61,617 nt of DNA from a virus (IMGVR_UViG_3300037755_000275:1-61617), one strand, 5' to 3'; positions 32,238 to 51,029 are shown, counted from the first letter of the stretch. The notes: a model not told the origin generated them from the sequence alone. Numbers and translations are program-made.

Positions 32238-32684
32238 TCACTTACGGTTCAAGAGCCACAGGGCGATTCCGGCTCCTATGATCCATGGGAGGTAGCTGGC
32301 CACGTCCATGCCCTGTAAGTTGTCCAGGATGCCGCCTACCCGGTCCGTGGGACATGGGGCAAACTCACAATTAGGTCCAGTACGTCCAACCACAGAGCCG
32401 TCTGGGCAGGATTTGGCGTCCATGGGACACATAACGTTAGTCAGTATTGGGGGAGTCGGCAGTGGCACTGCTTGCCCTGTAGTCCGTAGCAGTTCTAATT
32501 GCTGCTGTGCTTTCTGTTGGGCCAACACACTGGGCTTCCAGGTAGATTCATCCAGAAAGATCCCAGTTGGTGGGCCAGGGGGAGGCGGTGGGGTAAACCA
32601 CCAATCCATGCTGGGGTCGGACAATGGTTCACTACCCGGCGGCGGTGGAGGCTGCCCAACACCCTGGAGATAGACCATGGCCAT
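32238..32684 (-). CDS. C-terminally anchored membrane protein with a Cys-rich CPDGS module
   Basis: LQGVGQ; CPMDAKSCPDGSVVGRTGPNCEFAPCP; WIIGAGIALWLLNRK. Confidence 0.7.
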   Translation of the reverse strand: MAMVYLQGVGQPPPPPGSEPLSDPSMDWWFTPPPPPGPPTGIFLDESTWKPSVLAQQKAQQQLELLRTTGQAVPLPTPPILTNVMCPMDAKSCPDGSVVGRTGPNCEFAPCPTDRVGGILDNLQGMDVASYLPWIIGAGIALWLLNRK

Positions 32685-33178
32685 TAGAACACCCACCTGT
32701 TGTCGCGTAACGTGACGAAGGGCACTACCGGGACGATGGCTCCCGTGTACCGTGCTGTCAGTTCCTCACCACCGGGAGTATCTATGGTCATGTTGGCACG
32801 CATTGACCGGAACACCCCGTAGTAGGTTTCGTAGGCATAGACATCGGTCACTCCAGGGATGCCATTGTCCAGTACAGGTACATCCGTCACACTCGGTCCC
32901 ATGGGTTTCCAGCCATCGCCCAGGGGCTCACAGTCGTAGCTACACCATTCAAGGCGGATGCTGATACCGGCTACGGCTATGATTTCGCCGGGGAATGTCA
33001 CCTGCAACGTGTGCATGGCTTGGCCGACGTTTCGGAAAGGGGCTGATACCTGTGCCGTAGTGATCCCGGCGAATACGTTTTCAAATACGACCTGTTGGAT
33101 CACGTTCTGAGCGCCGAGGTAGGTGAACCCAGACGCCAGTAGCAGGACCAGGGCCGCGATCTGTGGATAGCCTTTCAT
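32684..33178 (-). CDS. Secreted beta-rich protein, paralog of the 30648-31856 core domain
   Basis: Signal peptide ...GFTYLGA|Q; shared N..Q...V.FP....I..R.E...W.P pattern. Confidence 0.65.
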   Translation of the reverse strand: MKGYPQIAALVLLLASGFTYLGAQNVIQQVVFENVFAGITTAQVSAPFRNVGQAMHTLQVTFPGEIIAVAGISIRLEWCSYDCEPLGDGWKPMGPSVTDVPVLDNGIPGVTDVYAYETYYGVFRSMRANMTIDTPGGEELTARYTGAIVPVVPFVTLRDNRWVF

Positions 33179-33208
33179 GGTGTCACCACTGCGTTGCAGG
33201 ACAGAGGA

Positions 33209-33565
33209 CTACGGTGGGTCCAGAGTCAGTGTCAAGTTCTGGGGACTGTTGGGTGTCACTACCACCTCGGCGCAGTTTGACGGTGTGCTCTCCACCGGAG
33301 ATCCATCCACCGTGACCTGGGCCGTCACCTGATAGCTCAGCCGACCAAATGGCACATCCGAATCCGTGTGTGTCTTGACTGTCAGGTCCGCCGGATTGAT
33401 CTTGGCAAACGACCCTGGCCCGGTACACGCCCCAGCCTTACGGTAAGCATTCCAACTCATGCCGGTCTGCTCGTCTGGTTGGCTCCAATTGAGGATGACG
33501 TTACGGGCGCAGGCCACCGCCGACATGGACAACAGCAGTGATAGGATGATGAGTAGTCTTTTCAT
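33209..33565 (-). CDS. Secreted FN3-like protein
   Basis: MKRLLIILSLLLSMSAVACA; VILNW...YR...YQVTA...ESTPSN...PQNL. Confidence 0.7.
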   Translation of the reverse strand: MKRLLIILSLLLSMSAVACARNVILNWSQPDEQTGMSWNAYRKAGACTGPGSFAKINPADLTVKTHTDSDVPFGRLSYQVTAQVTVDGSPVESTPSNCAEVVVTPNSPQNLTLTLDPP

Positions 33566-33625
33566 GTATTCCCTTTCACCTATTCCCTTTTTTCACCTAC
33601 CAATCGAAGTACTGTAGGCTATGTC

Positions 33626-34633
33626 CTACCAGTCAAAAGACACCAGCACGTTGGCCAGTGTTTCTCCAGCCGTGCCCAGGATCACCACGGTCAGGATGTC
33701 ACCACCGGAGATGTTCAACCGTGTTGAGGTGTTGGAACAGGTAAGGCCGGTCCCAATAGTGCAACTCAGTCCAGTAGCCACGCCATTGCGTAGTAATGTG
33801 ACCACGCCGGACGCCGCCGTCACCCCGCCCGTGACTGCTACGGCACGTAGATTGGTGGCTTGACTAGTACCTGCCACCAACAGTTGGTTATTCAACCCGG
33901 AGCTGGTGTCGTTGCAGGCTGTGCCAACCGGCTGATAGGGCATGAAAATCTGGCCGGATGACACGGTGCCAGTGCATAGACTTGACACTGTACTCCCACG
34001 GGTCACTGCTGTGGTACGCCCACTGGTCACGAATGCCGTGGCAAAGCCGTTACTGACATCAATGGACGGTGCCAGGGTCAACTGGGTGCTGTCCACGGGG
34101 CCGACTACTGTCAAATACGGATAGGCCCTGGACTGGTTGTCCATGCCAATGGTGGCATTGACCAGGGGTACCGCCGTCCCCAGTGTATATGCCTGTAACG
34201 CGGCCCCAGTGTCGGTCACGGCCCTGGTGGTCGTGGCCAGAGTCAGGCGGCATGTACATGGCACCGTCAAACCAGTCGTGTTGACCAGCTTGAGCAGATC
34301 GTAGGTCGTGGCACCTGGCACTGCGCTCCAGGTCACAATCACGGTATTGGACGCGCTGATAGCACCAGCCCCGCGCAACGTGGCAGGCTGACTCAGCACG
34401 ATGCCACGGGCCGTGGTTGCCACCACAAAGTAGGTGATGTCATTCGGACCATTTGGCCCAGAGTAGCTGATGTTGATGTTGGCCGGGGTCGGCGGGTCCT
34501 GAGTCATCGGAATCTGTTGGGCCGGCGACGGGATGAAGTTCCCCTGGCCATAGGCGGACCACGGAAGAACCAGCACAGACAGCAGTGCCAACGCGGCAAA
34601 TGTTTTTCTGATCGTATTCATTGTCATCTCCAT
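33626..34633 (-). CDS. Secreted beta-rich putative virion protein
   Basis: Signal peptide ...LVLPWSAYG|Q; VTWSAVPGATTY; C-terminal LLRNGVATGLSCTI. Confidence 0.65.
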   Translation of the reverse strand: MEMTMNTIRKTFAALALLSVLVLPWSAYGQGNFIPSPAQQIPMTQDPPTPANINISYSGPNGPNDITYFVVATTARGIVLSQPATLRGAGAISASNTVIVTWSAVPGATTYDLLKLVNTTGLTVPCTCRLTLATTTRAVTDTGAALQAYTLGTAVPLVNATIGMDNQSRAYPYLTVVGPVDSTQLTLAPSIDVSNGFATAFVTSGRTTAVTRGSTVSSLCTGTVSSGQIFMPYQPVGTACNDTSSGLNNQLLVAGTSQATNLRAVAVTGGVTAASGVVTLLRNGVATGLSCTIGTGLTCSNTSTRLNISGGDILTVVILGTAGETLANVLVSFDW

Positions 34634-34684
34634 TTCCCTTTTGTTACTGGTTTACGTCCATGGTCTACGGACTACGGACCACAG

Positions 34685-35266: not shown

Positions 35267-35296
35267 TCCATTGTCTCCGTTTCACTGACCACGGGC

Positions 35297-35971: not shown

Positions 35972-36022
35972 ACCCCTCTGTCCATCACCTGTGTAGTGTC
36001 ACCTGGATATGTCACCTGTCAC

Positions 36023-36913
36023 CTAACACGGAACACGGCGTACTCCCTGGAATGAAAACTGGTAAGACTGGTTGCCACCGGCCGCGTTCAACAGGCTGGT
36101 CAATTCAAACTCAATATTGGACCCGAATGGGTACACGTAGGTCGGGACCGGGAACACGGATTGGAAATTCAACGTGTTCTCAAAGTAGTTGACCCAGCGG
36201 GCTGGGTGTGGCTGTGAGGCCAGGGCGCGGTAGCCAGTCGGGTCGAACAGGAGAAACAGGAACGGGTCAAGGCCCAATGACTGGGGTAGACCACCATTGC
36301 CGTTGCCGCCATCTTCCTCAACCACTGGGATGGCATGGACGCAGATTTTCTGCAACTCAAAGTCGTATTCAGTGATTGGGATACTGAATCGGCGCGGGGC
36401 AGCTCCAGCGTCAAAGAAAAAGTTGATGGTCACGTCCAGTTCATACGAGTATGGGTGTTCGTAGTACACGTAATCGGATTGGTAGATACCCCAGTCCCAT
36501 TGGCCTTTGGGAACACGCTTGATACCCTGCCAGCCGATGAATGAGATTTCGTTGCCGTCTTCGTTGACGGCCTTGACCACATTCTGGAGATCGAACCGGA
36601 TCATGGACTGGACAGGGAAGAACTTTTCCGGGACCACTGTCCAGCGGTTGTTGGCGTTGACCAGTAAGGGAGTGCCGCCAGCGCCATGCTCTACACCCAA
36701 CCCCATGGCTTGGGACTCAGATGGGTTATAGTAGAGCCAGCGTGAGGCCACCGTGGCCATGCCGACCACGGAGCGGAGATAGAAGTCTGCATCAGTGATG
36801 TTGATGATGTTGCCGGATGGGCTGGTACCATTGGTCAAGGACCGTCCGTCGAATACCCAGAAGTAGGGAATATCGACCATGCCCTCTGGCGTCTTGTAGT
36901 GTTGTTCACGCAT
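36023..36913 (-). CDS. Tandem two-domain capsid-like protein (duplicated jelly-roll unit)
   Basis: Both halves match the 142-aa neighbour: ITDADFYLR / ITEYDFELQ, and WQGIKRVP / FQGVRRVP. Confidence 0.6.
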   Translation of the reverse strand: MREQHYKTPEGMVDIPYFWVFDGRSLTNGTSPSGNIINITDADFYLRSVVGMATVASRWLYYNPSESQAMGLGVEHGAGGTPLLVNANNRWTVVPEKFFPVQSMIRFDLQNVVKAVNEDGNEISFIGWQGIKRVPKGQWDWGIYQSDYVYYEHPYSYELDVTINFFFDAGAAPRRFSIPITEYDFELQKICVHAIPVVEEDGGNGNGGLPQSLGLDPFLFLLFDPTGYRALASQPHPARWVNYFENTLNFQSVFPVPTYVYPFGSNIEFELTSLLNAAGGNQSYQFSFQGVRRVPC

Positions 36914-37283: not shown

Positions 37284-37712
37284 CTACGCAATAGCAAATC
37301 GCTTGACCCCCCGGAACAAAATCTGGATCGTGTTCTCAGCAACGGACAAGTCAGCGATGTCAATGCCAATCTTGCCACCGGCTGGAATAATAACTTCCGG
37401 GAACTCCGGGTAGGGACTGGACGGATTGCCCTGGATGTTCGTATTGATGATCCGGCCGCTGGATAGCCAGTAGTCATCGGAGTCGCTGAATCGTACCGAG
37501 AACGCCCCGGTAAACAGGTTGATGACCGTTGCACGCCAGGGGAAGTCAGCATCGTTTTCGACGGACAACTGTGTCTGGAGGACCTGTGACGCGGTCAACG
37601 TCACGTTGAACACGTAATCAAATGACTGGTCCTTGTAACCGCCCGGTACGTCCAGTTGGCCAATGCCGTTGTAGGCCGGCGGCGCATAGGGATTGATTCC
37701 TGCACGGAACAT
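37284..37712 (-). CDS. Putative small single-jelly-roll capsid protein
   Basis: FDYVFNVTL, ENDADF, FSVRFSD, PEVIIPAGGKIGIDIADLS, IQILFRGVKRF. Strong RBS AAGGAGA. Confidence 0.6.
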   Translation of the reverse strand: MFRAGINPYAPPAYNGIGQLDVPGGYKDQSFDYVFNVTLTASQVLQTQLSVENDADFPWRATVINLFTGAFSVRFSDSDDYWLSSGRIINTNIQGNPSSPYPEFPEVIIPAGGKIGIDIADLSVAENTIQILFRGVKRFAIA

Positions 37713-37754
37713 GTTCTATCTCCTTATCTGTGTGTCGTCATCCGGCCTCAATAA

Positions 37755-37790
37755 ATGGACGGGGAGCCGACGAAAACCCCCCGTCCAGGG
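37755..37790 (-). terminator. Hairpin/attenuator downstream of the candidate major capsid gene
   Basis: TGGACGGGG...CCCCGTCCA followed by TTTATT on the minus strand. Confidence 0.5.
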
Positions 37791-37940: not shown

Positions 37941-38552
37941 CTACTGGACACCACGGGCGTGCAGGCCGTCCAGCAGCAACTGGAGCAATGCCCCGGTGCC
38001 GCCGACCGCGCCCGCCGCCAAAGTCAGGTTGTTCCCGATCAGAGCCGCCGAGAAATTCATCTTGTTCTCAATGACAATCGGGATGGCCAGCTTGTGCATG
38101 GCCTCACGCGACGGGTTACCGTTGTTGTAGGTGGCCTCGTCGGTGATCGAGCTGAAACCGTGGATGCCGCCCCCGGCATTGTAGAACCAAGGCGGTCCCT
38201 GGTTATACGGTTTGTCACCCAGGACAAACGAGATGGCAAAACCGTTGACGATGCCCAACAGGTCCGAGCGGAGAATGTTTTCCGCATACCGGAACCGCAT
38301 TCCCAGGATAGAGAATGCCTGAGGGGCGGCCAACTCGTTAGCCGTCCTCATGTTGGTTTGCGCCAAAGTCTTACCGGACGCCGGACCCACAGACGTGTAG
38401 AACGCGCTGTTGGTCGTGGTGATCGTGGCGGCGGCGTTGTAGGTCACGGTGTCCCACAGAGGCTCATGCTGCACGTCCATGCGATTCTGGACATACGTTT
38501 CGCTCTGAAAGGACTCAAAAATCATCTGTTGCTGCGGAGTCATCGGATTCAT
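37941..38552 (-). CDS. Candidate major capsid protein (vertical single jelly roll)
   Basis: EPLWDT...GKTLAQTNM...PQAFSILGMRF...IPIVI..NFSAAL..LLLDG. Own RBS, flanked by structured intergenic regions, directly after the Arg-rich core gene. Confidence 0.6.
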   Translation of the reverse strand: MNPMTPQQQMIFESFQSETYVQNRMDVQHEPLWDTVTYNAAATITTTNSAFYTSVGPASGKTLAQTNMRTANELAAPQAFSILGMRFRYAENILRSDLLGIVNGFAISFVLGDKPYNQGPPWFYNAGGGIHGFSSITDEATYNNGNPSREAMHKLAIPIVIENKMNFSAALIGNNLTLAAGAVGGTGALLQLLLDGLHARGVQ

Positions 38553-38682: not shown

Positions 38683-39492
38683 CTAGAAAGCCCTCCCAAA
38701 GGCTCTGGACACACCGTTCATGGTGACCGGCGCACCGGCTCCATAGGTGCCATTGGCGGCCACGGGAATCGGACGCCCGTAAGCCGGATAGTTCGCCTGG
38801 TTCGGGTTCAACGGGTTCTGAGGCACCGGGTAGGCACCGGGAACCAGATCACCGAGACCACGCATACCCTGAAGGGCAAGCTGCGAACCAATGGCCGGGA
38901 TGAAGGCATTGAGCAGAACCGAACCGGCCTGCATCAAGCCGCCAAACCGGACAGCAGCCCCAAACTGACGATTCCACAGACCACCCAGCCAACCGGCCGC
39001 GAATGCCGCCCCAATGGATGACAAAGAGGCCATGATTGGCGTGGACTTGAGATTGGCCGGCAGTGCGTTGGAAATGAACTTGGTGGCGGTCACACCGACC
39101 AGACCACCGAAGATTTCCTGCACCTGCCCAGCCATTGCCCCACCGAGCTGGTTACGGCGGCGGCGGTTGCTCCTGCGGACCACGATACGGGTAGCGTTGC
39201 GTCGTCGGCGGCGCGGGGCAGCCGAGATACGCCGTCGCGTGCGTCGTCGGGGTCGCGCCGTGTAGGAGGCATTCCGGCGGCGCGTCCGACGTGCGGTAGT
39301 GCGCTTTCTGCGTTTCTTCACTTTCGCTCTCCTTGGATTGAGTGCCCCGAGCGTAATGACCCGGAGCGGGTTTTTCGACCGGCTACGGTGGCGGGCACGT
39401 GTGGCCCGTTTCCGTCTCGTGGCCGAAGACTTTGACTTTCGACGGCGGCTCACCGGGTTGGCAATCCGCCTGACTCGAATGATGCGTTGCAT
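38683..39492 (-). CDS. Arg-rich DNA-condensing core protein with C-terminal membrane domain
   Basis: About 115-aa protamine-like N-terminus with NP/RRRN motifs; hydrophobic helices; MRGLGD. Confidence 0.7.
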   Translation of the reverse strand: MQRIIRVRRIANPVSRRRKSKSSATRRKRATRARHRSRSKNPLRVITLGALNPRRAKVKKRRKRTTARRTRRRNASYTARPRRRTRRRISAAPRRRRRNATRIVVRRSNRRRRNQLGGAMAGQVQEIFGGLVGVTATKFISNALPANLKSTPIMASLSSIGAAFAAGWLGGLWNRQFGAAVRFGGLMQAGSVLLNAFIPAIGSQLALQGMRGLGDLVPGAYPVPQNPLNPNQANYPAYGRPIPVAANGTYGAGAPVTMNGVSRAFGRAF

Positions 39493-40081: not shown

Positions 40082-40082
40082 G

Positions 40083-42302
40083 TCAGTTCACAATCCCCTC
40101 AGGACGTACTTCGTACTGGCCGCCGGACACGGATAACAGGTGGTTGATCGTGTCATAGTTCAATACGGGCTTTTGTCCTGTCACTTCCCCCAGCTTGTGG
40201 AAGTAGTCAATCAGCTCAAACTTGTCAAAACCCTTCTCTGTCCTGTAGGTCACCACCTGGAGTACGCCCAGGGCCATGTGATCGCGTACCCAGTCCCGGC
40301 CTGACATGCCCAGTTGACTTAGGTCCACGTACTGTGAGCCGCCCTCAAAGTACAGTTGGCGTCCATCAGGGGATGAACACAGCATGATGACGTTGCGGCC
40401 GGATTTGGGGAACTGGAGCCGCACCTTTTCATCCGTCATCAGGTGTACGTCCAGTTCAGCCAGTTCGCCAAGTTCGGCCAGGTTGTCACGCGATGAGATC
40501 ACGGTACGGACTTCGGTGGTTTGCTTAGGACCACGGCCATGGAACTGTTGATAGAGCTGGTCGGCGTCCTGCATGGTGGCAGGGTTAGGATTACGTCGCC
40601 TTCCCCTACCACGCCTTGGACTTTCATCCACAAACCAGTTGCTAAGCAGTCCGTCCAGGTCCTTGTATGCTGCCGTGCTGCTGATCTCTGGGTGTGCCTT
40701 GGAGAACTCTTTTGACGCCCACAGCATTTGCTCATACCGCCCACTTTTCCCAGTCCCACTCAGTGGCACACGAGCCAAATGGTAGAGATTCACCAATTCA
40801 CCAGCGTCCTTAGGGTCGATGAATCGGGGTACATAACGGTCAGGGTTGTTTCCACCCCGTGTCACTTCTCCAGGGTTCCCATTCCCATTCCGTTTGAATT
40901 TCCTTAACGCCTTCCTCGTCGCCGTAATCCCAATACCCCTAGCCCGGCCATTGACCTTCCTCGGCACGCCACTCAGCCTCAAATCCCCCTCATAGGCCAT
41001 CAGCCACCTATCAGCCTTCTGGTAAGTGTCAAACACCTTGATAGGCTTCAGGCTTTCCCCATATACCCCACTCTCATCAAACGGCATCACAGCCCACTTG
41101 CCAGGACTGCGGAACTTGATGACCTTCTCGGCTCTGGCGTTCCAGTTGTTCCACTTGATGGTGCCGGCGCTGGGGTCCACGTCACCAACACCAATATCCT
41201 TGCCGTGCGTGCGGCTGATGGTGAAGCGGAGATATTGAGGGTCCTTCTCCACCTTAGACTTGATTGCCTTCAACAATTCCGCCGTGGTGTCACCGTGGAT
41301 GTAGCCGTAGCCGCCTGAGGTATAGCGATCAGGCCACTGGGCAATCAGTTTCTTCCCGGTGATGGAGTTACGGCGTCGGCGCTTGATCCTACTCCTGTCC
41401 TTATGGGTCCACGCATCATAGAATCCGCGCATAAACTCAGTGCGTTTCTTTCCATATGATCGTGTAGGCTCCCCGGCCCGTCCCCACATAAACTCAAACT
41501 GCTGACCCATCGTAATGTCAGGGTCTATAGCGATCCCGGTATCAGCACCACGGCGCTCCTGTTCCCCATGGGAGTAGCCAGCGTCATACCAGTTGACTGC
41601 TGTGGGGTTACGGCGTCCGGGCTCAGGCCACAGCCGGTTGAACTCACGGGCGGCCAAGTCGTAATCATCCTCATTCCACTTGGTACGGCCTGCTTCCCTC
41701 ATCTGACGATTGGCAGCATCCGTAGCCGCCGCACGGGCCAATTGCTGAGTCATGGCAGGCCGTGGATTCAACTCTTTACCAGTCGCCCTCCAGAAATGTG
41801 CCGCCTCCCTCAAATATTCTGCCTCCCTCACCTGTTGGCTGTCCGTGACCCCGCTCTCCTGGTCATAGGACCGGCGCTTCAGCATTTCCGCTGCCCACTC
41901 AATACCCTTTTGCCGATTGCCAAACATCTTGGTCCCTTCAGCAATAAGGTGTGAATGCTTCTGCACTATGTGCTTGGTACGTCCCCGGTAATGTGGCTCA
42001 TCCATCAGGTCAGTAATAGATGGGTTCCGCCGTGTGCCTTCCACATGCTCCTGATGTCCTGGAGACTCCCAAACCGTTTGTCTTCTGTTGGGATCAAATA
42101 CCTCAACCGGATGCCCAGTCCGCTTGTACTCCTTCTTTCCAGCAGCAACCGCCTTAGCCTTGCTGTCAAATGTCATCCGCACTGGTAACTGGTTAGGGTC
42201 ATCCAAGTCATAGCGCGTGACCTGATAGGAATAACCACGATGCTTGCGGGTCGTGGGTTCCCCGTAAGCATTCCGCCTCCGTCTCTGTACCCTACGCGCC
42301 AT
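40083..42302 (-). CDS. RRNP-punctuated modular basic protein (739 aa)
   Basis: Modules separated by RRRRNA, RRNP, LNP, RRNP, RRRRNS, NNP, RRRNPNP. C-terminal domain YQQFHG...YFHKLGE..P...GGQY..GIVN. Confidence 0.75.
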   Translation of the reverse strand: MARRVQRRRRNAYGEPTTRKHRGYSYQVTRYDLDDPNQLPVRMTFDSKAKAVAAGKKEYKRTGHPVEVFDPNRRQTVWESPGHQEHVEGTRRNPSITDLMDEPHYRGRTKHIVQKHSHLIAEGTKMFGNRQKGIEWAAEMLKRRSYDQESGVTDSQQVREAEYLREAAHFWRATGKELNPRPAMTQQLARAAATDAANRQMREAGRTKWNEDDYDLAAREFNRLWPEPGRRNPTAVNWYDAGYSHGEQERRGADTGIAIDPDITMGQQFEFMWGRAGEPTRSYGKKRTEFMRGFYDAWTHKDRSRIKRRRRNSITGKKLIAQWPDRYTSGGYGYIHGDTTAELLKAIKSKVEKDPQYLRFTISRTHGKDIGVGDVDPSAGTIKWNNWNARAEKVIKFRSPGKWAVMPFDESGVYGESLKPIKVFDTYQKADRWLMAYEGDLRLSGVPRKVNGRARGIGITATRKALRKFKRNGNGNPGEVTRGGNNPDRYVPRFIDPKDAGELVNLYHLARVPLSGTGKSGRYEQMLWASKEFSKAHPEISSTAAYKDLDGLLSNWFVDESPRRGRGRRRNPNPATMQDADQLYQQFHGRGPKQTTEVRTVISSRDNLAELGELAELDVHLMTDEKVRLQFPKSGRNVIMLCSSPDGRQLYFEGGSQYVDLSQLGMSGRDWVRDHMALGVLQVVTYRTEKGFDKFELIDYFHKLGEVTGQKPVLNYDTINHLLSVSGGQYEVRPEGIVN

Positions 42303-42342
42303 TTTTATGATTAAAACTCCTGCCCCGTGTCCCGTATACCGG

Positions 42343-45008
42343 CTACCGTTTCCACAGCCCCAGGACTATGGCCCCCAACGCCCCACCAATGACCAAGGTC
42401 TGTAGGTCAAGGCCCTGGACAAATTCACCCACGCCGGCACCCAGGACAGGGGCACCGTTCACGTAGCCCGTAGCCGTGTCACTGGCCGCAGCACCGTTGG
42501 TCCCTTGGCCGCTCGTATCCCCGCTGCCACCATCCCCGCCACAGCAACAGCCGGACATGCCAGCCCGCAGAGCCCGGATCAACGGGTTACTGGGCACTGC
42601 CAACCTGGACGGCATCAGGTCCCCGAACTTGGGCACGTAGCCGATGTCCCCGGCGAAACCATATGGCATCAGCGCACGGGACTTGTTATCCACGATGGGA
42701 TTCTGTGGCACGACAAAGAAGCCTGGGATGAGATCCCCGAATCCTGGTGCCGGATGGTGGTTGATCCACATAGTTTGTTTCTCCCTTACCTTCGTCCCTT
42801 ACCTTTTGGCCAAGACCACTACGCCGAAAATCGCCGCCCCGATCAGAAACATGGTCGTATAGTTGATTACTGGTTTCGTACCTGGCTCTGGCGGCTTGCC
42901 AGTGACCAGAGCCCATGTGCTATAGGCAGAACACATTTCCGGGTTGGCTCTGCAATAAGCCGCTACTGACTTGTCACCAGCCTCAATCGCCCGCTGACGC
43001 ATCTCAGGAGTCATCGCTGGCCCAAAATCAGCCGCCTGACACTTGGATGGGTCAATTGGCAAACACTCGGCTACCATGGCACCTGCTTGGCCAAGGTAGT
43101 CACACCAGGCCGGTGATGGAGCACAGGGGTTCGTCTCCCTCTCACTGGGCCACAGCGGGATGTACTGATACCACGGTGTCTGACCCATGCCACGGTTGGC
43201 TGTCCACCTGTGCATGGCGTCATGGTCCAATCGCTCGAATTTTGAAATCAATGGCATTCGTTACTTTTTCGTCAAAGTGCTCAAGGCCAGTAGGCCGACC
43301 AAAGATCCCGCAATCAGCAACCAGTTGTCATTCACCCAGGCCAGGGCCGTGTCCGGCGGTCGTGGCGCTAATGGTGGCTGCCCACCTGTCACCGTAGGCG
43401 GCGGTGAAAACAGAGACGGCAGCATTCCCCACCACTGGTCCTCAGCGCGGGTGACAGGTGTACCGGCTTGGATCAACGGAACGTTGGCCATCCAGTCCAC
43501 GTTGCCCATCGCAGTACGTGGATCAAATACACGCCCCATGCCGTCCATGTCCATCACCGGGATCTGGTCGCAGTCTTTGGCACCCGGTGGCACTTGCAGA
43601 CTGGGCACGATTCCTGGCCTGTTGATCGGGATGCGTGACTCCACAATACGGACCACTTCCTCCGGCTCAAAGTAGTGAGCCAACAGCGTGTAGTTCGGAT
43701 TGTTTTTCACATGCGGAGGTATTTGCATCGTCTGTTACCACTTGACCTGTAGTGCCTCTATTTGCTCTACTTCCTGTTTGCATTCTTCATCTGTCATCCC
43801 AGGGTCAGCTTGAACGGCCCAGCCATCGTACAGACCATCTTTGGTGAAGTAATGGACGATGGGCTGTTTACCGGGGGCGCGGCACACGATGCTATCAAGT
43901 TCCTCCCCGTCTTCCACGTAGGAACCGTCCGGTATGTACAGCACACGGTTCAGGTCCTTGTTTCCACCGTCACCAATAACCTTGAGGTTCATCACTTGCC
44001 CTTTCGCAACAGCACCCAGGCCAGCACGCCGCCGATGGCAAATGGTGCCAGCCCTTCTGTCATGGATATCCCAGGACAGTCCTCCAGGTACACATCCGGG
44101 GATGGTGCCCAGTCCCCAAAAGTCCGCGTACCGATGTCGGCGGCCAACGGCCCGTAGTCGGCCGGTCCCGGAGGAGGCACCAGTTGTGCCGGGCATCTTC
44201 GCCAGTCAAATATCACCATTTAGTTGCCCCCTTCGTAGAGACTTGCCTGTTGGCCCCACCAGTTGACTCCGGCCATGCCGTTGCCATTGACCCGGCCAAG
44301 TCCCATGGGACCCTTGACCATGGCCCACCACTGGTCAATCGTCAGTGGTGTGTTCTGCACGTCGTCTACGCCCAGTGGCTTTCTTCCCAATTTCGTGGCC
44401 TGCCACAGTGACTCCGGCACAGCAAACGGGTCCACGGCGGGCAGATTCGCTGGCAGATAAAAGTTCCATTGCCAAAAGTGCAGCTCCCCACCATTGGCAG
44501 TGGCCTCACCCTTCGCTGCCTGCCACACCTGGTCCTTGACGTTGCCGCCGCCGGACTGTCCGCCGCCCACGGTATTGCTGCCAACCTGTTGCCCAGCATC
44601 ATTTTGTTGGCCCGGCGTCTGGCCAGTGGTATTGGTAATCGGGACCTGTCCACCATTCGATATGGGGGCAACGTCGCTGGCCAGTCCCACGTAATCTGGG
44701 ATCATGCCCTCGCCTACTGCCCACCTGTAACCGAAGTAGATGGCCGCACCGATGGCCGCGTACTTGACCACCCCGCCCATGTCGCCCATGCCGCTTGTTT
44801 TGGCCATTCACTTCCCTTTCTTTTTGCTGCCTGTTGCCACAAACAGGGCTGCCCCTGCCAACAAAGCCAACAATGCACCTGCACCAATAGCCCCACCACT
44901 ACAGGAACCACAGGCCGTGGCAACCGATTGCACAGCAGCCATGCTGGGAACTCCCAGCATTCCGTAGCGCAATCCCTGACGTACTATGTTTGGCAACTGG
45001 GCTGTCAT
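42343..45008 (-). CDS. Cluster of seven small proteins, mostly membrane-anchored (42343-42771, 42799-43257, 43261-43728, 43735-43992, 43992-44219, 44220-44807, 44808-45008)
   Basis: Tightly coupled ORFs. Five end in a TM helix plus K/R tail, one has an N-terminal TM, and 43735-43992 is soluble and acidic. Confidence 0.7.
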
Positions 45009-46138
45009 TTCTTACTCATCACCATGTAGCCGCCGACTGCTGCACCGGCCCATACCCACCAGGGAAGGTCACCCAAGGCACCAAACAGTCCACCATCCCC
45101 ATCCCCAGCCGGAGCGCCAACACCCGTGCCAAAGTATCCATAGTCCGTAACTGCCGTCACTGTCTGGCCATCTCCTGACACCACACCCTCACCGACAAAG
45201 AATCCCGGCGGCACCTTCAGCGCTTCCTGCACCATCTCCAGACTGGAATTGGCGTTGTAGGCAATGGCCGCCCGCCAGCTTACCCGTCCATCGGACCGCT
45301 CAATATCCAACCCCTTGACCAAGGACTGCATCAACTGTTGGCGTAACTGTGCCCCCTGCTGAGCTACCGCCGCAGCATCTTGTTGAACAGTCACAGATCC
45401 ACCAGCCGCAGCATTGACAGCCGCCGTGATTGCAGCCTGGGATTCAGGAGTCCCAATAGCCGAGGTGGGTACTCCCTGCTGGATTGCCGCCGCCGTGGCC
45501 TGTGTCCTGGCCGCCGAGGTAATTGCCGTCCCCGGATTCAGGTTGATGGCATAGGCCCCATGCTCATAGGGTCCGCCGTCAATCGAACACATCATGGTCG
45601 GGTAGTTCAAACCACCCGGCACATTAGACGGATACACCAACTTGCAATTGACCGTGTGCCTGGTCTGCTGAAAATACTGCTTGGCATAGTCACTGAGCGG
45701 CTGTGCCATCTGCTGCTCAACCGACATGGAGGCATAGTCGGAGGCGGATGCGCTGGACTGTTGCACCACTGACTGTGGCGACTGGCAATAGCCGTTGTGC
45801 CAGACACGGCCTGGGCTGCACCGGCAACCGTCAGGACCCTCCGGCCCGGTATAGGCAGCAGTACGCCCGCTTCCCTCAGGGCAGTTGGCCCCAAGACTAC
45901 CAATGCCGTTGTACCGAGTCGGCAGAGCACCGGGCCAGTCCAGGTAGCTCAGCCAGTTCCACATGGGCACGCGGTCCATCTGGGCACGAACCTGGGCAAA
46001 CTCATCCGGCAGCACACAGGCTTTCCGCACCCGGTCCCACACGTAGGGATACGGACACAGCGCACGGGACTGTTGCCCCACCGCGCCGTTGTTGAACGCG
46101 CCCGCCTGTTGCGCCTCGTTGACCTTTACGTGTGCCAT
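45005..46138 (-). CDS. C-terminally anchored membrane protein with Cys-rich modules
   Basis: CPYPYVW..AC, CPEG...CRCSPG..YC; WWVWAGAAVGGYMVMSKK. Confidence 0.7.
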   Translation of the reverse strand: MAHVKVNEAQQAGAFNNGAVGQQSRALCPYPYVWDRVRKACVLPDEFAQVRAQMDRVPMWNWLSYLDWPGALPTRYNGIGSLGANCPEGSGRTAAYTGPEGPDGCRCSPGRVWHNGYCQSPQSVVQQSSASASDYASMSVEQQMAQPLSDYAKQYFQQTRHTVNCKLVYPSNVPGGLNYPTMMCSIDGGPYEHGAYAINLNPGTAITSAARTQATAAAIQQGVPTSAIGTPESQAAITAAVNAAAGGSVTVQQDAAAVAQQGAQLRQQLMQSLVKGLDIERSDGRVSWRAAIAYNANSSLEMVQEALKVPPGFFVGEGVVSGDGQTVTAVTDYGYFGTGVGAPAGDGDGGLFGALGDLPWWVWAGAAVGGYMVMSKK

Positions 46139-46178
46139 GATCTGTGGTCTCAGTTCGTTTTAATCACTAAACTCCAGG

Positions 46179-47381
46179 TCACATCTGCAATGCCACGAAA
46201 GCCAGCACTCCGGCAATCAGCAGTGGGGTGAGATTGCCCATGTCACCAGTGCCCTGGGTCCGGTACACCGTTTGACCTGTCACAGGGTCCACTTCGGCTA
46301 CCAGGCCGGGATCAGGGACCACATCCGGGTCATTGGCGATTGGGTCCCTGTAGCGTGCAAACCAGTCCCACTGGCCACCGGGTTTGCGGTCGTCAATGCA
46401 CCATTTACCGGGCGTGCCCATGTCAGGGATGCCGCAGGACTTGACCACGTAGTCCCAGCCGGCGTCAAAGTTTTGTAACGCCTGGTATTGGGATGAGACC
46501 GTGTGGGGGCCGGACATGTAACCAGCCAGGTTTTGCTGCATCATGGGCTCTACGCTGTCCACAATTTCAGTGGTGGCGCGTTTCTGGCCCGGCTTCTTGC
46601 GGCTGAATAGGGCCATGAGTCCAATGGTCACGCCTGCTACGGCCAGACCAATGGGACCACCGGCGGCGGCAAGCCATACGGAGCTGGATGCCAGGGAGCT
46701 ACCTGATGCAATGGCGGCGGATGTTACTGCCAGACCTGTGCCCACAGCAGCCTGGGTTGTGGAACCACCAGACGGTAGACGGAATCCGCCCTGGGTTGTC
46801 TGTCCCTGTGTGAAGTACTCGGAAAGATCCTGACCAAGCCCACCTAGTCCGTTCTGTGTCTGGTGGAACGGCTTGGGGTCAACGTAGATGAACTTGTCAT
46901 AGCCGACCACGCCACGGTGTTCCATGGGACGGGATAGGGCCTTGGCCGCTTTGTCAATCCGTGCCTGACGTTCCAGCTCCTCAAGCTGCGGGTCCGTGTT
47001 CATGGCCCGGAGCGCCCATTCCGTACCCATGCCGATGATGACGCCTTGGGTGATGGGATCAAGGAAGCCTAGGGAACCAAGGGAGCCATCACTGCGGCGG
47101 TAGACGCCACGGGCTGCGGCCGGCGCTGGTTGGCCCACGTGACTGAGTAGCCAAGCCGTGTCCTGCACACGGGAATTGATACCAGAGAATGCGCCAGGGT
47201 GACCATGGCGGCGGCGCTCACGGACACGGCGGGATGGCGTGGCGTCAGCACTGGCGGGCTGGGCTACGTGGGACAGCAGCCAGGCTGTGTCCTGCACACG
47301 GGAGTTGATGCCACGCACACCACGGCCGGGGGGACGTGAGACGTGTCCACCAAGAGCCGATCTGTAGGAGGTTTGTTGCAT
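46179..47381 (-). CDS. Membrane protein with an internal repeat and Gly/Ala-rich hydrophobic segment (entry protein candidate)
   Basis: GINSRVQDTAWLLSHVxQPA twice; AAAGGPIGLAVAGVTIGL; C-terminal TM. Confidence 0.65.
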   Translation of the reverse strand: MQQTSYRSALGGHVSRPPGRGVRGINSRVQDTAWLLSHVAQPASADATPSRRVRERRRHGHPGAFSGINSRVQDTAWLLSHVGQPAPAAARGVYRRSDGSLGSLGFLDPITQGVIIGMGTEWALRAMNTDPQLEELERQARIDKAAKALSRPMEHRGVVGYDKFIYVDPKPFHQTQNGLGGLGQDLSEYFTQGQTTQGGFRLPSGGSTTQAAVGTGLAVTSAAIASGSSLASSSVWLAAAGGPIGLAVAGVTIGLMALFSRKKPGQKRATTEIVDSVEPMMQQNLAGYMSGPHTVSSQYQALQNFDAGWDYVVKSCGIPDMGTPGKWCIDDRKPGGQWDWFARYRDPIANDPDVVPDPGLVAEVDPVTGQTVYRTQGTGDMGNLTPLLIAGVLAFVALQM

Positions 47382-49684
47382 TACCTGTAAGCCGCCCGCC
47401 AACCATTTTTGATGCTCTTTTCCAACCGCGCCTTATGGGCACTGGCGCTGGAGTATCCACGTTTCTTGAGTCGTGATACAGCCTTCCTTGCAGAGGCTAC
47501 GGTGTTGCCAACCCACGCGATGTTGTTGAACCCCGTGGTTGCATAAACTACGTAGCCTTCCCGGTAATCCAGTACTCCGGGATTAGACCGTCGCCTCCCC
47601 TTCCGTGCCATCCCCGCCATTCTCTTAGCCCCATACTTGCGTCTGCCGATTGATGTACACAGACCACCAGGACTACGCACCCCACGGCGCTTCATGGTGG
47701 ATACACATTTGCGGAACCTGGAACCGGTGCCCAGCTTGCCTTTACCAAATGACGGGTTGGCTTTATACCCACGTTCAATTTGCTTGTATCCCACAAAGCG
47801 ATTACCATCCCACCGATGGATAGAGGCTTCCCCTTGTTTTTGTGCTACTGCTTCCGCCTTACTCAAGGCAGCACGTAGCGTGGCATGGTAGGAATGCTCT
47901 CCGCGCCCACGCCCGTTGAACACCATGTACTTTTTTATTGGATTGGATGACCGTGACGGGTTACTCACCCTGCGAAACTGTTTCCGCCACCCACGCTTGA
48001 ACCCGGCCGGTAGCTTGGCCTCAAACCCCTTGACTGCCTTGTGACCAGCAGCCAACAGCTTTTTCATGGCCTTCTGGGCTTCAGTGGCAAGACGACCAAC
48101 CCAGGCCACGGAGTTGCCGACCTGGACCACGTAGCCTTTGCGTGGGTTGTTGACACGGGTATGGGGGTTGGTCCGCCGACGCAGCACGGACGCGGCATTG
48201 CGGCGTCGTGAATTTGGCCTGGCAACCTTGGACCCATATTTGTATGCACTGCCACCAATCTCAGCCAACCCATCTGCTGCACCTACCCGCCAGTTGGCCA
48301 AGTAACTCCGTTGCAGCTCAGTACGCATACTTGGAATCAGATTCCTGTAGGAACCAAACTCCCTTTTAATGGCCGTCTCAATTTGTGACTGGGATGGTGC
48401 CTGTCTCTTGCCACCACGTTTGCCTACCTTGAACCCAGCACGATAGGCTACGGTGCTGAGGGCTTCATAGGAGGGATTGCGTAACCTCCCACCCTTGGCC
48501 ACACTCCTGGTCCCAATCCCTGCATCCCGTCCCCGGCCACGTGGATTCTTGGCACCAGTTGGGTTTATCCACGACTTGGCTTGTCTGAGCGTGTCTGTCT
48601 GCCACACCAACTTTGACTGGTAATACACGTCATAGGAGGTTCGGACACGGCCATCGCCACTACGTCCCCTCTTTTTGACAATCACAAATCCCATGTAGGG
48701 GATACGAGTTGGATTCATCACCCGTGCCCCTACCGACCGTCCAATACGGCCGGCCACGGCCCTGGCGCTGGGTCCGGCTACAGTGCGGCGTGGACGTACA
48801 CCCGGATTGCGTTTCCTGGGACTTGACCCAGTACCGATTACTACCCGCACCCTGTCATCACCGGAACGCCCTTCTTGCCTGTTGATGATGTTGGCCGTTT
48901 CTTCTGCTTCCTTCCTGGACGTGTACCGATACATTGAGCCATGCTTCCGATAACCAATCGGCTCAGGTCCGGGAGTACGCATCTTGCCTTCAGCGACCCA
49001 GTAGTAGGTTGGCCCCTTGCCGGGATTCCTACCCCGAATAATCCTGGGCCTGTCCTTCTTCGGCGGCGTCGGCGGCTTTTTGGTCCTGGGCGGAATCCAC
49101 GCCCGTCTTGCAGCAAGTACCCCGCCGGCTTTTGGCAACCCATACCCGTACCCTGGACCCGTGGCCGTGGCCGTACCGACCGTGAATATCGGGTTCTGTC
49201 TCCCACGCCCTGTAACCCGACTTGCCTTCTTGAACTGTTCCCGCCACCCGACAACCGGCACCTTGCCGCTGACCGGGTTAGGCCCAACCTTTTTAATCAT
49301 GCAAATGCCGAACCCGGCGCGTTTGAGTTTGGTCTTGGCCTTGGTCGTGTCAGGTTTGGAGGCAGAGACGTAGGCCAGGGTGCCTTTGCAGTAGACACCC
49401 CATTTGTGACCGGCGCGGGACTTGGATCGTGGGTTGGTGCGTCGTGTCATGGTGCGCCTACCTCGTGGGTTTCTTTTCTTGGGCAACTTACCACCAAGTT
49501 CGATCACGGTTTGTTCAATGGCTGACTTCCACGCCGGGTGGATCGTAGTACGCAATTGTCCAATCGTTGGTGACCCCGGATAGCTTGCTGAAATTCTGAT
49601 TGAGTCGTTGTACCCACGGCGCTCTGCCAACTTTATTAGTTGGTTCTGAATCTTCCGAAGGTATGTGCGTTCGGCGTCCGTCAC
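47381..49684 (-). CDS. NP-punctuated, highly basic polyprotein-like protein (767 aa)
   Basis: GTG start overlaps the upstream TGA at 49681-49684. 16 Asn-Pro dipeptides, mostly after K/R runs. Confidence 0.75.
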   Translation of the reverse strand: MTDAERTYLRKIQNQLIKLAERRGYNDSIRISASYPGSPTIGQLRTTIHPAWKSAIEQTVIELGGKLPKKRNPRGRRTMTRRTNPRSKSRAGHKWGVYCKGTLAYVSASKPDTTKAKTKLKRAGFGICMIKKVGPNPVSGKVPVVGWREQFKKASRVTGRGRQNPIFTVGTATATGPGYGYGLPKAGGVLAARRAWIPPRTKKPPTPPKKDRPRIIRGRNPGKGPTYYWVAEGKMRTPGPEPIGYRKHGSMYRYTSRKEAEETANIINRQEGRSGDDRVRVVIGTGSSPRKRNPGVRPRRTVAGPSARAVAGRIGRSVGARVMNPTRIPYMGFVIVKKRGRSGDGRVRTSYDVYYQSKLVWQTDTLRQAKSWINPTGAKNPRGRGRDAGIGTRSVAKGGRLRNPSYEALSTVAYRAGFKVGKRGGKRQAPSQSQIETAIKREFGSYRNLIPSMRTELQRSYLANWRVGAADGLAEIGGSAYKYGSKVARPNSRRRNAASVLRRRTNPHTRVNNPRKGYVVQVGNSVAWVGRLATEAQKAMKKLLAAGHKAVKGFEAKLPAGFKRGWRKQFRRVSNPSRSSNPIKKYMVFNGRGRGEHSYHATLRAALSKAEAVAQKQGEASIHRWDGNRFVGYKQIERGYKANPSFGKGKLGTGSRFRKCVSTMKRRGVRSPGGLCTSIGRRKYGAKRMAGMARKGRRRSNPGVLDYREGYVVYATTGFNNIAWVGNTVASARKAVSRLKKRGYSSASAHKARLEKSIKNGWRAAYR

Positions 49685-50331
49685 CGTTTCCCCCGATAGG
49701 TCCCACCACCGACGCCACCACTGAACGCAATCGCCAGCAGGATCATCCCCGCTGCCAGTACCGCAAACTGTCCACCTGCGCTGGAAGGCAACATGCTTTT
49801 CAACTGTTCCGGCAGATACTCCTCCAGTCCGGCCATGGACACGGGAGCACCACCGGGAGCACTGGGCCTCGATACTTGCGCCAGGTACATGGACTACTTC
49901 CTCCGGGACATGGCCATGAATACCAGCACGCCAACCCCGACCAGGGCCACGGTCCCAACTGAGAACCCGGTGGCAAAACCTTCCGGCGTGGCTACCCCAT
50001 ACTGCTGCGACGACAATGAACCCGGAATGATGGGCAACGACGGCTGCGTACCTTCCGGCTGCTGGTAGTAGATGGTCCCCTGCGGCGTTGTCTGCACCAC
50101 GGTCCCAGGTCCATACTTGAACCGCGTGCTGACTGTCTCCACGCCAGTCTTGATGAGATCCTGCCACCAGGTCTGGCCCATGCCACGGGATGCCAGGTAG
50201 CCACGTAGGCCGCCGGATGGTTCATGTCCGCCGGGGACACTCATCGTGCCCTCTAGCGACTGTGCCGAGAATGCACGCCGGATGCGCTGAGCCTGATTGC
50301 CTACCGTGTAGCGGCCAACGACAGCGGCCAT
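49681..50331 (-). CDS. Two C-terminally anchored membrane proteins (49681-49890 and 49894-50331)
   Basis: FAVLAAGMILLAIAF; RGMGQ...VALVGVGVLVFMAMSRRK. Confidence 0.7.
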
Positions 50332-50333
50332 GG

Positions 50334-51029
50334 TCAGATCCCCCCTCTTGCCCACAGGTACATCAGCAGCACGACGCCGACTACGGTCCCAACTCCCATG
50401 CCACCAATTGGCCACTCCTGTATCCGGGTATAGGGCGCGTGTTCCCACCCTGGATGTGGGCCATGACTCGTGTCCACCGCGATCCGTTCCCCCTCATTGG
50501 TGTAGGCGGCAACGTAGACGTGGGAGAACTTACCCACCTCAACCCTGTCCGCCGCGATGGTCACGAACGCGGTACGGATACCCAGCGCCGTCAACAGTGC
50601 TGCCGTATACATGGAGAAGTCGTCGCAGTCGCCCAACCGGCTGCATTGGCGGCCATCACCGCACATGGCGGCCATTTGTTTTGGCCGAACCAGCACTTCA
50701 ATGATGGGGACACTGCCGGGAGTTTCCATCCACGAGGACAGCCGCTCGTCGCCCACGAATGACAGCCGGCGCTTCACGTAGCGGAATACGCGGTCCACGA
50801 TCTCACGCTGTGGGATGTGGCCGTAGTCGATAGTACCTACAGCCTCGTGGGCATCCCTGCGGATCTCAAGTGACTGGGCATCCTCCACCACGTACTGCCG
50901 CATTAAATCTATGGTGGCGGCAACCTGGCCGTCCGCGTCATCCGGGACGTAGCTCTCCTGCGTAGGTAGGACTCGACCGAAGGCTGGATGGTAGAGGGCC
51001 TGCATCCTGCGGGCTAGGCCCCCTCCCAT
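50334..51029 (-). CDS. Transglutaminase-like cysteine protease with C-terminal TM
   Basis: Catalytic Cys-His-Asp motifs GDCDDFS, FSHVY, AVDTS. First gene of the virion operon. Confidence 0.85.
   Translation of the reverse strand: MGGGLARRMQALYHPAFGRVLPTQESYVPDDADGQVAATIDLMRQYVVEDAQSLEIRRDAHEAVGTIDYGHIPQREIVDRVFRYVKRRLSFVGDERLSSWMETPGSVPIIEVLVRPKQMAAMCGDGRQCSRLGDCDDFSMYTAALLTALGIRTAFVTIAADRVEVGKFSHVYVAAYTNEGERIAVDTSHGPHPGWEHAPYTRIQEWPIGGMGVGTVVGVVLLMYLWARGGI

Follow-up and report, generated by a model that had tools for sequence, protein, structure and literature searches.

A short glycine tag on unrelated virion proteins of an uncultivated phage and a transglutaminase-fold enzyme that may recognise it

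Virus cysteine proteases such as adenain, pS273R of African swine fever virus (ASFV) and poxvirus I7 trim many virion precursors at short glycine-containing sites, in viruses whose cores contain Arg-rich proteins; in general, maturation proteases (e.g. those of T4, phiKZ, adenovirus, poxvirus and ASFV) typically act on short small-residue sites close to the N-termini of many unrelated virion proteins. To our knowledge, a maturation protease has yet to be described for any prokaryotic jelly-roll virus, and the selection of membrane proteins and the maturation of the particle in membrane-containing phages are poorly understood. The subject of the present work is the IMG/VR virus record IMGVR_UViG_3300037755_000275 (61,617 bases, referred to as the window at its full length), which carries on its minus strand a structural operon (table 1). 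The first gene of the operon encodes a predicted transglutaminase-fold enzyme with a C-terminal transmembrane (TM) anchor, and several unrelated proteins of the same operon, most of them anchored by a C-terminal helix (tail-anchored), carry at or near their N-terminus the motif G-[LMVIF]-G-[QDS] (G-h-G, where h is hydrophobic; the tag in the following). The reading that we prefer, tentatively and with low confidence, is that the tag may be the recognition and cleavage site of this enzyme.

As far as the fold is concerned, the precedent for such an activity is LapG. This protease depends on calcium, has a Cys-His-Asp triad on a transglutaminase-like fold (PMC4359373) and cuts a di-alanine motif (PAAG, AAAG) in N-terminal adhesin fragments (PMC6890996). 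The enzyme of the window resembles LapG, of the BTLCP (Peptidase_C93) type, in fold and triad (Z 8.8 in the VIA structural comparison), possibly in the acidic residues D134 and D136 on either side of the catalytic Cys, and, if our proposal is correct, in acting on a short small-residue motif in the N-terminal part of its substrates. It differs in scoring 15.2 bits against Peptidase_C93, for which the cut-off is 27, with six of 46 family members matching at E <= 0.05 (best E 2.2e-5). Furthermore, LapG is a periplasmic protein with a signal peptide, whereas the enzyme has neither an N-terminal hydrophobic segment nor a signal peptide and is anchored at its C-terminus, and the motif is G-h-G rather than A-A.

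Adenain-type enzymes belong to clan CE, with a different fold and the catalytic order His...Asp/Glu...Cys, whereas in the enzyme of the window Cys135 comes first, followed by His170 and Asp186, and the fold is that of transglutaminases. Adenain- or Ulp1-like chains are not among the fold-search matches listed, all of which have the transglutaminase fold, an absence from a list that excludes no family. A sequence-only reading of the window had raised the possibility of an adenovirus-like maturation system, three sites (LQGVG, LGGLG and MRGLG) matching the adenain consensus (M/L/I)xGx-G, of which (M/I/L)XGG-X is the other form. M, I or L is found at the adenain P4 position, two residues before the first glycine, in three of the ten sites of the window and in 10 of 26 non-redundant N-terminal sites, so that most sites do not fit and, with catalytic order and fold also different, the likeness to adenovirus is one of analogy only. 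A third group to be compared is that of PeiW and PeiP, soluble lysis enzymes of methanogen viruses in which cell-wall-binding repeats precede the catalytic domain. They share with the enzyme the encoding by a virus, the transglutaminase fold and the catalytic Cys, and differ in that Pfam finds no such repeats in the enzyme, which is, instead, membrane-anchored.

The gene of the enzyme is preceded by a 170-bp spacer with one promoter-like site, and was present in all eight genomes of the group examined. Pfam detects in the product the Transglut_core domain below threshold (E 0.0036, 18 bits with a gathering cut-off of 23), and 1048 homologs are found at E <= 1e-3. In 46 aligned homologs (31-55% identity) D134, C135, D136, H170, D186, S188 and H189 are invariant, and the enzyme domain is followed by a C-terminal TM anchor in nearly all of them. 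At E <= 0.05, 34 of these 46 proteins match Transglut_core (best E 3.3e-8) besides the six BTLCP matches mentioned above, and 16 match DUF553; no Pfam model is dedicated to the family, which, as judged from its sequences, is a divergent branch of the transglutaminase-like clan, below the Pfam thresholds of every named family. A search of the enzyme profile against the sequences of the PDB gave no significant match (best E 0.26). The structural model is confident (pLDDT 90.6) and is matched by Foldseek to 3isr (E 2e-5) and 3kd4 (E 1e-4). With VIA, 24 chains are found at Z >= 8, the best being again 3kd4, a 'putative protease' of unknown function (Z 13.9), together with factor XIII (11.5), TG3 (10.6), PNGase (10.5), TG2 (10.2), PeiP (9.3), PeiW (8.9) and LapG, and then arylamine N-acetyltransferases (about 8.5). 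Such a fold settles the chemistry, in which a Cys nucleophile attacks an amide or acyl group, without specifying the reaction, which may be that of a protease, of a cross-linker or of a cell-wall isopeptidase.

The enzyme also leads to an isolated phage. When 50,697 phage records of GenBank were searched, it matched a single protein, gp34 of SSIP-1, or Salisaeta icosahedral phage 1 (tblastn, E 8e-4); the two proteins are aligned by hhalign with a probability of 98.2 and E 3e-14, their Cys and His motifs coinciding, and gp34, which is annotated as a structural protein in the SSIP-1 record, also ends in a TM helix. On this comparison gp34 is the nearest characterised relative of the enzyme, its annotation being structural only, and the enzyme is common to the lineage of the window and to SSIP-1, a phage described in a review as membrane-containing (PMC6356626). 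Small SSIP-1 proteins with C-terminal hydrophobic ends are encoded downstream of gp34, and the motif is found in gp36 (QGMGD at residue 17) and gp53 (PGMGS at residue 31). When 24 SSIP-1 proteins were compared with the window by tblastn, gp34 alone matched, and a link through the capsid was discarded, as hhalign gives probabilities of 0.2% and 3.8% for the profile of the 203-residue jelly-roll protein of the window against gp45 and gp46, respectively. SSIP-1 has a genome of 43.8 kb with an annotated structural ATPase (gp40) and an integrase, unlike the window, in which the replication module is T7-like and a packaging ATPase could not be recognised. Among viral structures (BFVD), the model of the enzyme matches unnamed proteins of 536, 304 and 400 residues (E 3e-9 to 2e-7), the second of which equals gp34 in length.

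The succession of enzyme domain and C-terminal anchor in nearly all of the aligned homologs would also suit a cell-wall hydrolase carried by the virion for entry, as are P7 of PRD1 and P5 of phi6, anchored in the viral membrane by its C-terminus and having nothing to do with the motif. The transglutaminase fold does include pseudomurein endoisopeptidases, namely, PeiP and PeiW, the enzyme of psiM2 being present in the viral fold library, and the structural annotation of the SSIP-1 homolog agrees with a place in the particle. However, additional Pfam domains, including cell-wall-binding ones, are found in none of the 29 longer homologs, and a candidate gene for such a function is already available just downstream of the operon (26341-26739, minus strand): its 132-residue product matches a domain that occurs within tape-measure proteins (phrog_2276, E 1.7e-15) and a family labelled 'endolysin' (phrog_873, E 4e-10), and is likely a peptidoglycan hydrolase by these matches, while SSIP-1 has an annotated endolysin of its own (gp31). 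Moreover, conservation is much stronger in the enzyme than in the membrane proteins encoded around it, which mostly give no tblastn match in relatives, as would fit a substrate internal to the virus. A function in entry is unlikely in our opinion, and it would be compatible with a tag that is bound rather than cut (see below).

With the motif defined after the data were seen, it occurs 10 times in the 31 structural proteins (7552 residues), compared with 3.65 +/- 1.86 in 2000 within-protein shuffles, 0.3% of which reach 10, and once in 42 non-structural proteins (9172 residues), where 2.3 are expected. Nine of the ten sites had been listed in the sequence-only reading and are all in the genes there named, the tenth being IGVGD at residue 371 of the protein 40083 (proteins are named after the first coordinate of their genes in table 1). 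The same reading had counted about 11 proteins with a terminal TM helix and mostly K/R tails, and 11 minus-strand proteins within 32238-51029 indeed end in a hydrophobic helix, nine of them with a K/R terminus; it had also placed a membrane-anchored Cys-His-Asp enzyme at the head of the operon, which agrees with the invariant triad, the conserved anchor and the transglutaminase fold of the model. What had been presented as a property of the virion proteins turns out to be one of their N-termini, as the whole excess is located in the first 25 residues: five sites are found there in the window with 0.38 expected, and 17 with 3.73 expected in 421 open reading frames (ORFs) of 17 related loci, whereas no excess is present beyond this limit (5 versus 3.1 in the window, 37 versus 32 in the related loci).

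The relatives were collected by an alignment-based scan, which found 12 loci where a single query with the 203-residue protein against viral contigs had found nothing; the related loci span only about 10 kb on either side of the jelly-roll gene. Gene starts are uncurated longest-ORF calls, so that the true distance of a site from the N-terminus is often shorter than that listed. In 12 related loci the whole-protein excess replicates weakly (45 versus 27.7, three of the 12 individually at p <= 0.05). The N-terminal excess persists when three families with an inherited motif are dropped (12 versus 3.27) and when residues 2-30 alone are shuffled, as a control for N-terminal composition (22 versus 3.65 +/- 1.88 over 452 proteins), the matches being distributed over 17 of 203 sequence families; as three of the related loci are near-duplicates, it is safer to count by family. 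When four complete genomes are compared, the structural ORFs contain 5, 2, 0 and 2 N-terminal sites, with about 0.3 expected in each, and the non-structural ORFs 0, 1, 1 and 0, with about 0.5 expected in each; one of the two outside matches sits on the operon strand at the edge of the block. The motif is, therefore, a genuine N-terminal feature of unrelated structural proteins, replicated in relatives.

That it merely reflects chance or the composition of glycine-rich structural proteins is hardly credible. Such an explanation could draw on the glycine content of structural proteins (11%, versus 7.8% in the others), on the lack of excess away from the N-termini, on three relatives in which internal occurrences in non-structural ORFs also exceed the shuffles (19 versus 8.8) and on the post hoc definition of the motif. 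However, the N-terminal excess replicates in genomes that played no part in that definition, survives local shuffling and spans 17 families, and in one family the motif is kept at a fixed position in 104 of 119 homologs; glycine itself is not raised at the N-termini (0.095 versus 0.099). Two trivial origins were also considered and rejected. Mis-called or internal start codons would place start-like codons (ATG, GTG, TTG) at the middle residue of the motif, and these are found in 6 of 27 cases with 7.2 expected. Signal-peptidase sites were discarded on inspection, as the tagged N-termini have no hydrophobic core. The corresponding signal-peptidase-type motif, A-[LMVIF]-A-[QDS], is itself enriched N-terminally (12 versus 3.5) and served as a positive control, indicating that a real N-terminal processing motif shows in a test of this kind; it fits ordinary signal peptides on a few structural proteins, e.g. 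33209-33565, 32684-33178 and 33626-34633.

The tag is present on four or five proteins in the genome of the window and on two to five in most relatives. Most of the tagged proteins are tail-anchored, one is a small protein of the capsid module, and the tag is also found near the end of an Arg-rich protein. The association with a C-terminal TM helix is significant (15 of 27 tagged versus 99 of 425 other proteins, odds ratio 4.1, p 8e-4) and holds by family (13 of 20 versus 56 of 183). The 26 non-redundant sites give the consensus [A/L]-[R/P/S/T]-G-[L>M,I,F,V]-G-[Q>D>E>S]-[T/L/S], and many of them are followed by a Thr/Ser/Pro/Gly-rich linker, which would make the site accessible. The residue after the second glycine is most often Gln (12 of 26 sites, several reading Q-x-P), and substrate glutamines of transglutaminases usually lie in flexible ends; with factor XIII, TG3 and TG2 among the best structural matches, the enzyme might then be a true transglutaminase, linking the glutamine of G-h-G-Q to lysines of capsid or core and stapling membrane to shell. 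Yet the remaining 14 sites have D, E or S, and D or E is found in 101 of the 104 motif-keeping homologs of the best-conserved family, residues that cannot be acyl donors, which makes cross-linking a very unlikely reaction.

The facts call for a function shared by unrelated tail-anchored proteins, one capsid-module protein and one Arg-rich protein, the common signal being a six-residue tag located at an exposed end or close to it. In our preferred reading, the enzyme would be anchored in the same membrane and in the same orientation as the tagged proteins, and would, in the course of particle assembly, cut them after the second glycine, as LapG acts on a motif of small residues close to the N-termini of its own substrates; we infer both the interaction of the enzyme with the tag and cleavage as its outcome. 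This reading is favoured by the precedent of LapG, by the hydrophobic P2 that would result from such a cut, papain-like enzymes preferring a hydrophobic residue at P2, by the presence of a separate lysin-like gene, by the lack of another conserved protease and by the general rule that small-residue sites shared by virion proteins are protease sites. With regard to other proteases, the only one in the window is a trypsin-like serine protease encoded inside the replication module (9973-11223, minus strand; phrog_20754 'protease' E 2e-52, weak Pfam matches to Trypsin and Nal1), and it was discarded as a conserved maturation protease as it has no match in any of five related complete or near-complete records, an empty answer being weak evidence. 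More broadly, a large uncultivated lineage of jelly-roll phages with a membrane may have the membrane-anchored transglutaminase-fold enzyme as its maturation protease, trimming G-h-G from the N-termini of tail-anchored, capsid- and core-associated proteins, a generalization that we consider rather doubtful at present.

Several observations weigh against cleavage, and most of them favour docking instead. The first concerns the best-conserved tagged family, that of 42343 (209 homologs found, the 120 listed being used for the counts), where the motif lies within an element that is invariant and about 22 residues long, HPAPG-h-G-[DE]-h-h-P-G-[WF]-[FY]-V-V-P-[QN]-N-P. HPAx is present in 119 of the 120 homologs, at residues 5-8 in 117 of them, and is followed by G-h-G-[QDSE] in 104 of the 119. 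The element is repeated two to three times per protein, two G-h-G-[QDSE] being found in 66 of the 120 homologs, three in 18, and two P-x-N-P in 97. It is also found near the C-terminus of the Arg-rich 269-residue protein 38683. Conservation on both flanks of G-h-G over 20 residues suggests a binding module, and a repeated element of this length, as far as sequence goes, is more than a cleavage site needs and looks more like a docking module. Second, the called leaders that would be removed are as short as three residues (MQI-GIGQ, MMT-GIGD). Third, only three of the 11 tail-anchored proteins of the window are tagged within 25 residues of their called start, a fourth being tagged at residue 50, and a complete relative (G003) keeps the enzyme with no N-terminal tag in its structural block. 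Fourth, in the family of the 142-residue capsid-module protein, across 12 loci, the first glycine is kept in 12, the hydrophobic residue in 11 and the second glycine in six; of the loci without the full motif, five keep G-h and one keeps the glycine alone. Fifth, true transglutaminases and PNGase outscore LapG as structural matches of the enzyme, and the cell-wall isopeptidases PeiP and PeiW score about as LapG does. Finally, no self-processing site could be recognised in the linker of the enzyme itself, where the motif is found seven times in 148 homologs with 7.4 expected.

The alternative to which most of these observations point is that the tag is an uncleaved docking or sorting signal, i.e. 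a small N-terminal hook at the tip of a flexible linker, with which an assembly factor or the inside of the jelly-roll shell would be bound. Membrane proteins of the virus would thereby be chosen for the particle and its membrane would be held to the capsid, the enzyme doing something else; the longer element of 42343 and 38683 would then be a multivalent version of the hook. The constancy of the element on both sides of G-h-G and its fixed N-terminal position are in line with this, and so are its multiple copies, the short leaders and the presence of one and the same element in two unrelated proteins of a genome, one membrane-anchored and the other with an Arg-rich DNA-binding end. Its alternating aromatic/valine pattern (F-x-V-P) could add a strand to a beta-sheet, and the tail-anchored proteins with which the tag is associated would have their N-terminal domains facing the shell. 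On the other hand, the binding partner is hypothetical, the part shared by most of the singleton proteins is only about six residues long, little for a docking site that is to be specific, the soluble capsid-module protein 37284 is tagged as well, and it would be left unexplained why, of the membrane proteins of the module, the one conserved most widely is a Cys-His-Asp enzyme. Docking is, in our judgement, a serious but doubtful explanation. A model of the complex between residues 1-208 of the enzyme and the N-terminal 75 residues of the 42343 family scored 0.02, with a mark of 0.32, and weighs neither way on binding.

Conservation of the sites among orthologs is found for some of them and not for others. 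The motif is kept in all 10 loci aligned over it in the family of 42343 and in nine of 10 in that of 38683, while it is complete in half of the loci for 37284 (see above), the GGLGQ site of 46179 is not clearly conserved among orthologs (the C-terminal half of the protein being kept in 11 of 12 loci) and the IGVGD site of 40083 lies in the non-conserved part of a protein whose C-terminal domain all 12 loci retain.

A six-residue N-terminal tag on unrelated tail-anchored proteins and one conserved Cys-His-Asp enzyme, both present in the cultivable phage SSIP-1, form a signature that can be put to the test. If the tag is cut, the enzyme would represent a new class of maturation protease, the first in prokaryotic non-tailed double-stranded DNA viruses, having arisen independently of the adenain-type enzymes and converging on the logic of adenovirus, and it would work in a particle seemingly built around a protein-condensed genome without a packaging ATPase. 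If the tag is not cut, it becomes a candidate sorting or docking signal that would explain how viral membrane proteins are recruited under the capsid. In the literature searched, which does not extend to subscription journals and supplements, we found no account of the virus group, of a virion enzyme with a transglutaminase fold from a membrane-containing phage or of a protease that matures a prokaryotic jelly-roll virus, and no paper that names both 'Salisaeta' and 'transglutaminase'.

Table 1. The structural operon of the window and those of its products discussed in the text (aa, amino acids).
Coordinates	Strand	Product	Features
27451-51029	minus	structural operon	31 ORFs; runs from 51029 down to about 27451
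50334..51029	minus	231-aa predicted transglutaminase-fold enzyme	first operon gene; Cys135-His170-Asp186; C-terminal TM helix at residues 211-227
49894..50331	minus	145-aa tail-anchored protein	ends SRRK; RGMGQT at residue 50 (residue 21 if an internal ATG is the true start)
49681..49890	minus	69-aa tail-anchored protein	ends YRGKR; no motif
47381..49684	minus	767-aa very basic protein	16 Asn-Pro, mostly after R/K; start set at a GTG overlapping the upstream stop
46179..47402	minus	407-aa protein	two hydrophobic helices, one C-terminal; GGLGQ at residue 188
45005..46138	minus	377-aa tail-anchored protein	ends SKK; NGIGS at residue 78
44808..45008	minus	66-aa tail-anchored protein	ends SKKKGK
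44220..44807	minus	195-aa protein	SGMGD at residue 6, immediately followed by a hydrophobic stretch
43992..44219	minus	75-aa tail-anchored protein	ends RKGK
43261..43728	minus	155-aa tail-anchored protein	ends TKK; GMGR at residue 63, outside the [QDS] class
42799..43257	minus	152-aa tail-anchored protein	ends AKR; RGMGQT at residue 23
42343..42771	minus	142-aa tail-anchored protein	ends WKR; N-terminal element HPAPGFGDLIPGFFVVPQNP, degenerate copy FGDLMPSRLAVPSNP, then a Cys/Gly-rich stretch
40083..42302	minus	739-aa protein	basic N-terminal two-thirds (7 Asn-Pro, several RRNP)
38683..39492	minus	269-aa protein	Arg-rich N-terminus, hydrophobic Gly-rich middle, then RGLGDLVPGAYPVPQNP
37941..38552	minus	203-aa single jelly-roll protein (predicted)	most conserved structural protein; likely major capsid protein
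37284..37712	minus	142-aa capsid-module protein	NGIGQ at residue 16; homologous to each half of the 296-aa protein
36023..36913	minus	296-aa protein	two tandem domains, each like the 142-aa protein; clusters with 37284
32238..32696	minus	152-aa tail-anchored protein	ends NRK; QGVGQ at residue 12, then a Pro-rich linker

The shell of the particle may be approached through the 203-residue protein, which has more than 320 homologs, all unnamed, with 55-79% identity among the 120 listed. Its model is a jelly roll (pLDDT 77.6), and in two independent searches the best solved match is the capsid protein of Sulfolobus polyhedral virus 1 (SPV1, 6oj0; Foldseek probability 1.0 and E 2e-3; VIA Z 8.2 over 149 residues with a root mean square deviation of 3.7), the next VIA matches, at Z 6.8-6.9 and all among the top five, being HCIV-1, VP17 of P23-77 and HHIV-2. 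As modelled, the protein has the jelly-roll fold, with known capsid proteins as its closest structural matches. SPV1, HCIV-1, HHIV-2 and P23-77 are internal-membrane viruses, and several jelly-roll-type genes are adjacent to one another in the window; there is, however, no sequence similarity to them, a Z of 8.2 is just above the typical best score of unmatched models, and the genome of the window is three times larger, with a bacterial gene content. Apart from this fold and the enzyme, the structural labels are weak leads, and the capsid-module genes encode candidate shell proteins. The 296-residue protein is possibly a double-barrel capsid protein, as its residues 1-139 and 143-296 align separately to proteins of about 155 residues among the Atlas structures. 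Both this and the 142-residue protein terminate in F-[RQ]-G-V-[KR]-R. A weak lead points to the P2 capsid protein of PM2 (score 0.78) and, for the 193-residue protein at 34685-35266, another to the VP17 barrel of P23-77 (0.75).

TM segments were called from Kyte-Doolittle hydropathy (17-residue window, threshold 1.7), a crude criterion that also flags one beta-strand of a capsid protein. Nine tail-anchored proteins exceed the threshold (50334, 49894, 49681, 46179, 44808, 43992, 43261, 42799 and 42343) and two fall just under it (45005, ending in ...WWVWAGAAVGGYMVMSKK, and 32238, ending in ...YLPWIIGAGIALWLLNRK); those without a K/R end are the enzyme (ARGGI) and 46179 (LQM). By inspection, no motif is shared ahead of the TM helices, and a C-terminal sorting signal of the sortase or exosortase type was set aside. 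In 38683, the final stretch is the same element as that at the N-terminus of 42343. From the 11 tail-anchored proteins and the link to SSIP-1, the particle would contain an internal membrane with about ten small tail-anchored proteins; it would also have a core of very basic proteins, the 767-residue protein being probably a genome-condensing core protein.

The genome is complete, since an exact repeat of 127 bases is shared by its two ends. The operon is almost wholly dark: for its 31 ORFs Pfam returns the sub-threshold transglutaminase core of the first gene and a weak match to E1_FCCH, and PHROGs nothing useful. A replication set is encoded elsewhere, with a family A DNA polymerase, a UDG-domain protein, ThyX, an ERCC4 nuclease, helicases, a D5-type primase, ParB and Gp157. 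Neither Pfam nor PHROGs matches a terminase, a portal or an HK97-type capsid protein in the 31 structural and 30+20 other ORFs, a sequence search that very divergent forms could escape; a scan for Walker A motifs, aimed at a packaging ATPase, found none in the structural operon, and no FtsK/HerA-type packaging ATPase was found in the window. Overall, the genome is probably that of an uncultivated tailless-type phage with jelly-roll capsid proteins, the operon being its virion module. Relatives number hundreds in metagenomes, with contigs of up to about 75 kb, several complete or longest ones being 55-68 kb; the group is a large one without annotation, which automatic tools appear to label as tailed phages despite the lack of detectable tailed-phage genes.

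With three very basic proteins in the operon and no packaging motor found, the particle may surround a protein-condensed genome rather than be filled by a motor, an arrangement for which SPV1 is a precedent. A ParB-like protein adjoins a match to phrog_6247 'DNA topoisomerase' (54962-57583, minus strand; E 4e-112), which hints at plasmid-like or otherwise unusual genome maintenance. On the same strand, the family A polymerase domain (5052-6497) and a UDG domain, the latter at the N-terminus of a 449-residue protein (6866-8215), belong to distinct ORFs with one of 79 residues (6630-6869) between them, as could result from a split or interrupted polymerase gene. Relatives of the jelly-roll protein are also found on five contigs of metagenome-assembled genomes (L014-L018) binned as Lysinibacter, Desulfatibacillum, Bryobacteraceae, Saccharibacteria and Methylophilaceae; these labels, which differ from one another and may stem from contamination, are uninformative on the host, and in the Bryobacteraceae contig (358 kb) the element is located at the extreme end.

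A second short motif, Asn-Pro, is strongly over-represented in the basic structural proteins 47381, 40083 and 38683 and in the same families of the relatives, usually after basic residues (RRNP, KRNP, RRTNP). It is found 46 times in the window with 22.0 +/- 4.3 expected, 16 of these in the 767-residue protein, and 516 times with 244.6 +/- 15.4 expected in the relatives (L002-L018), where [RK][RK]NP occurs 69 times with 2.7 +/- 1.6 expected. Statistically it is far stronger than G-h-G, the conserved element of which also ends in P-Q-N-P. Asn-Pro bonds self-cleave in some capsid proteins, and possible roles of the motif are to hook DNA, to link repeated small domains or to mark a site of processing.

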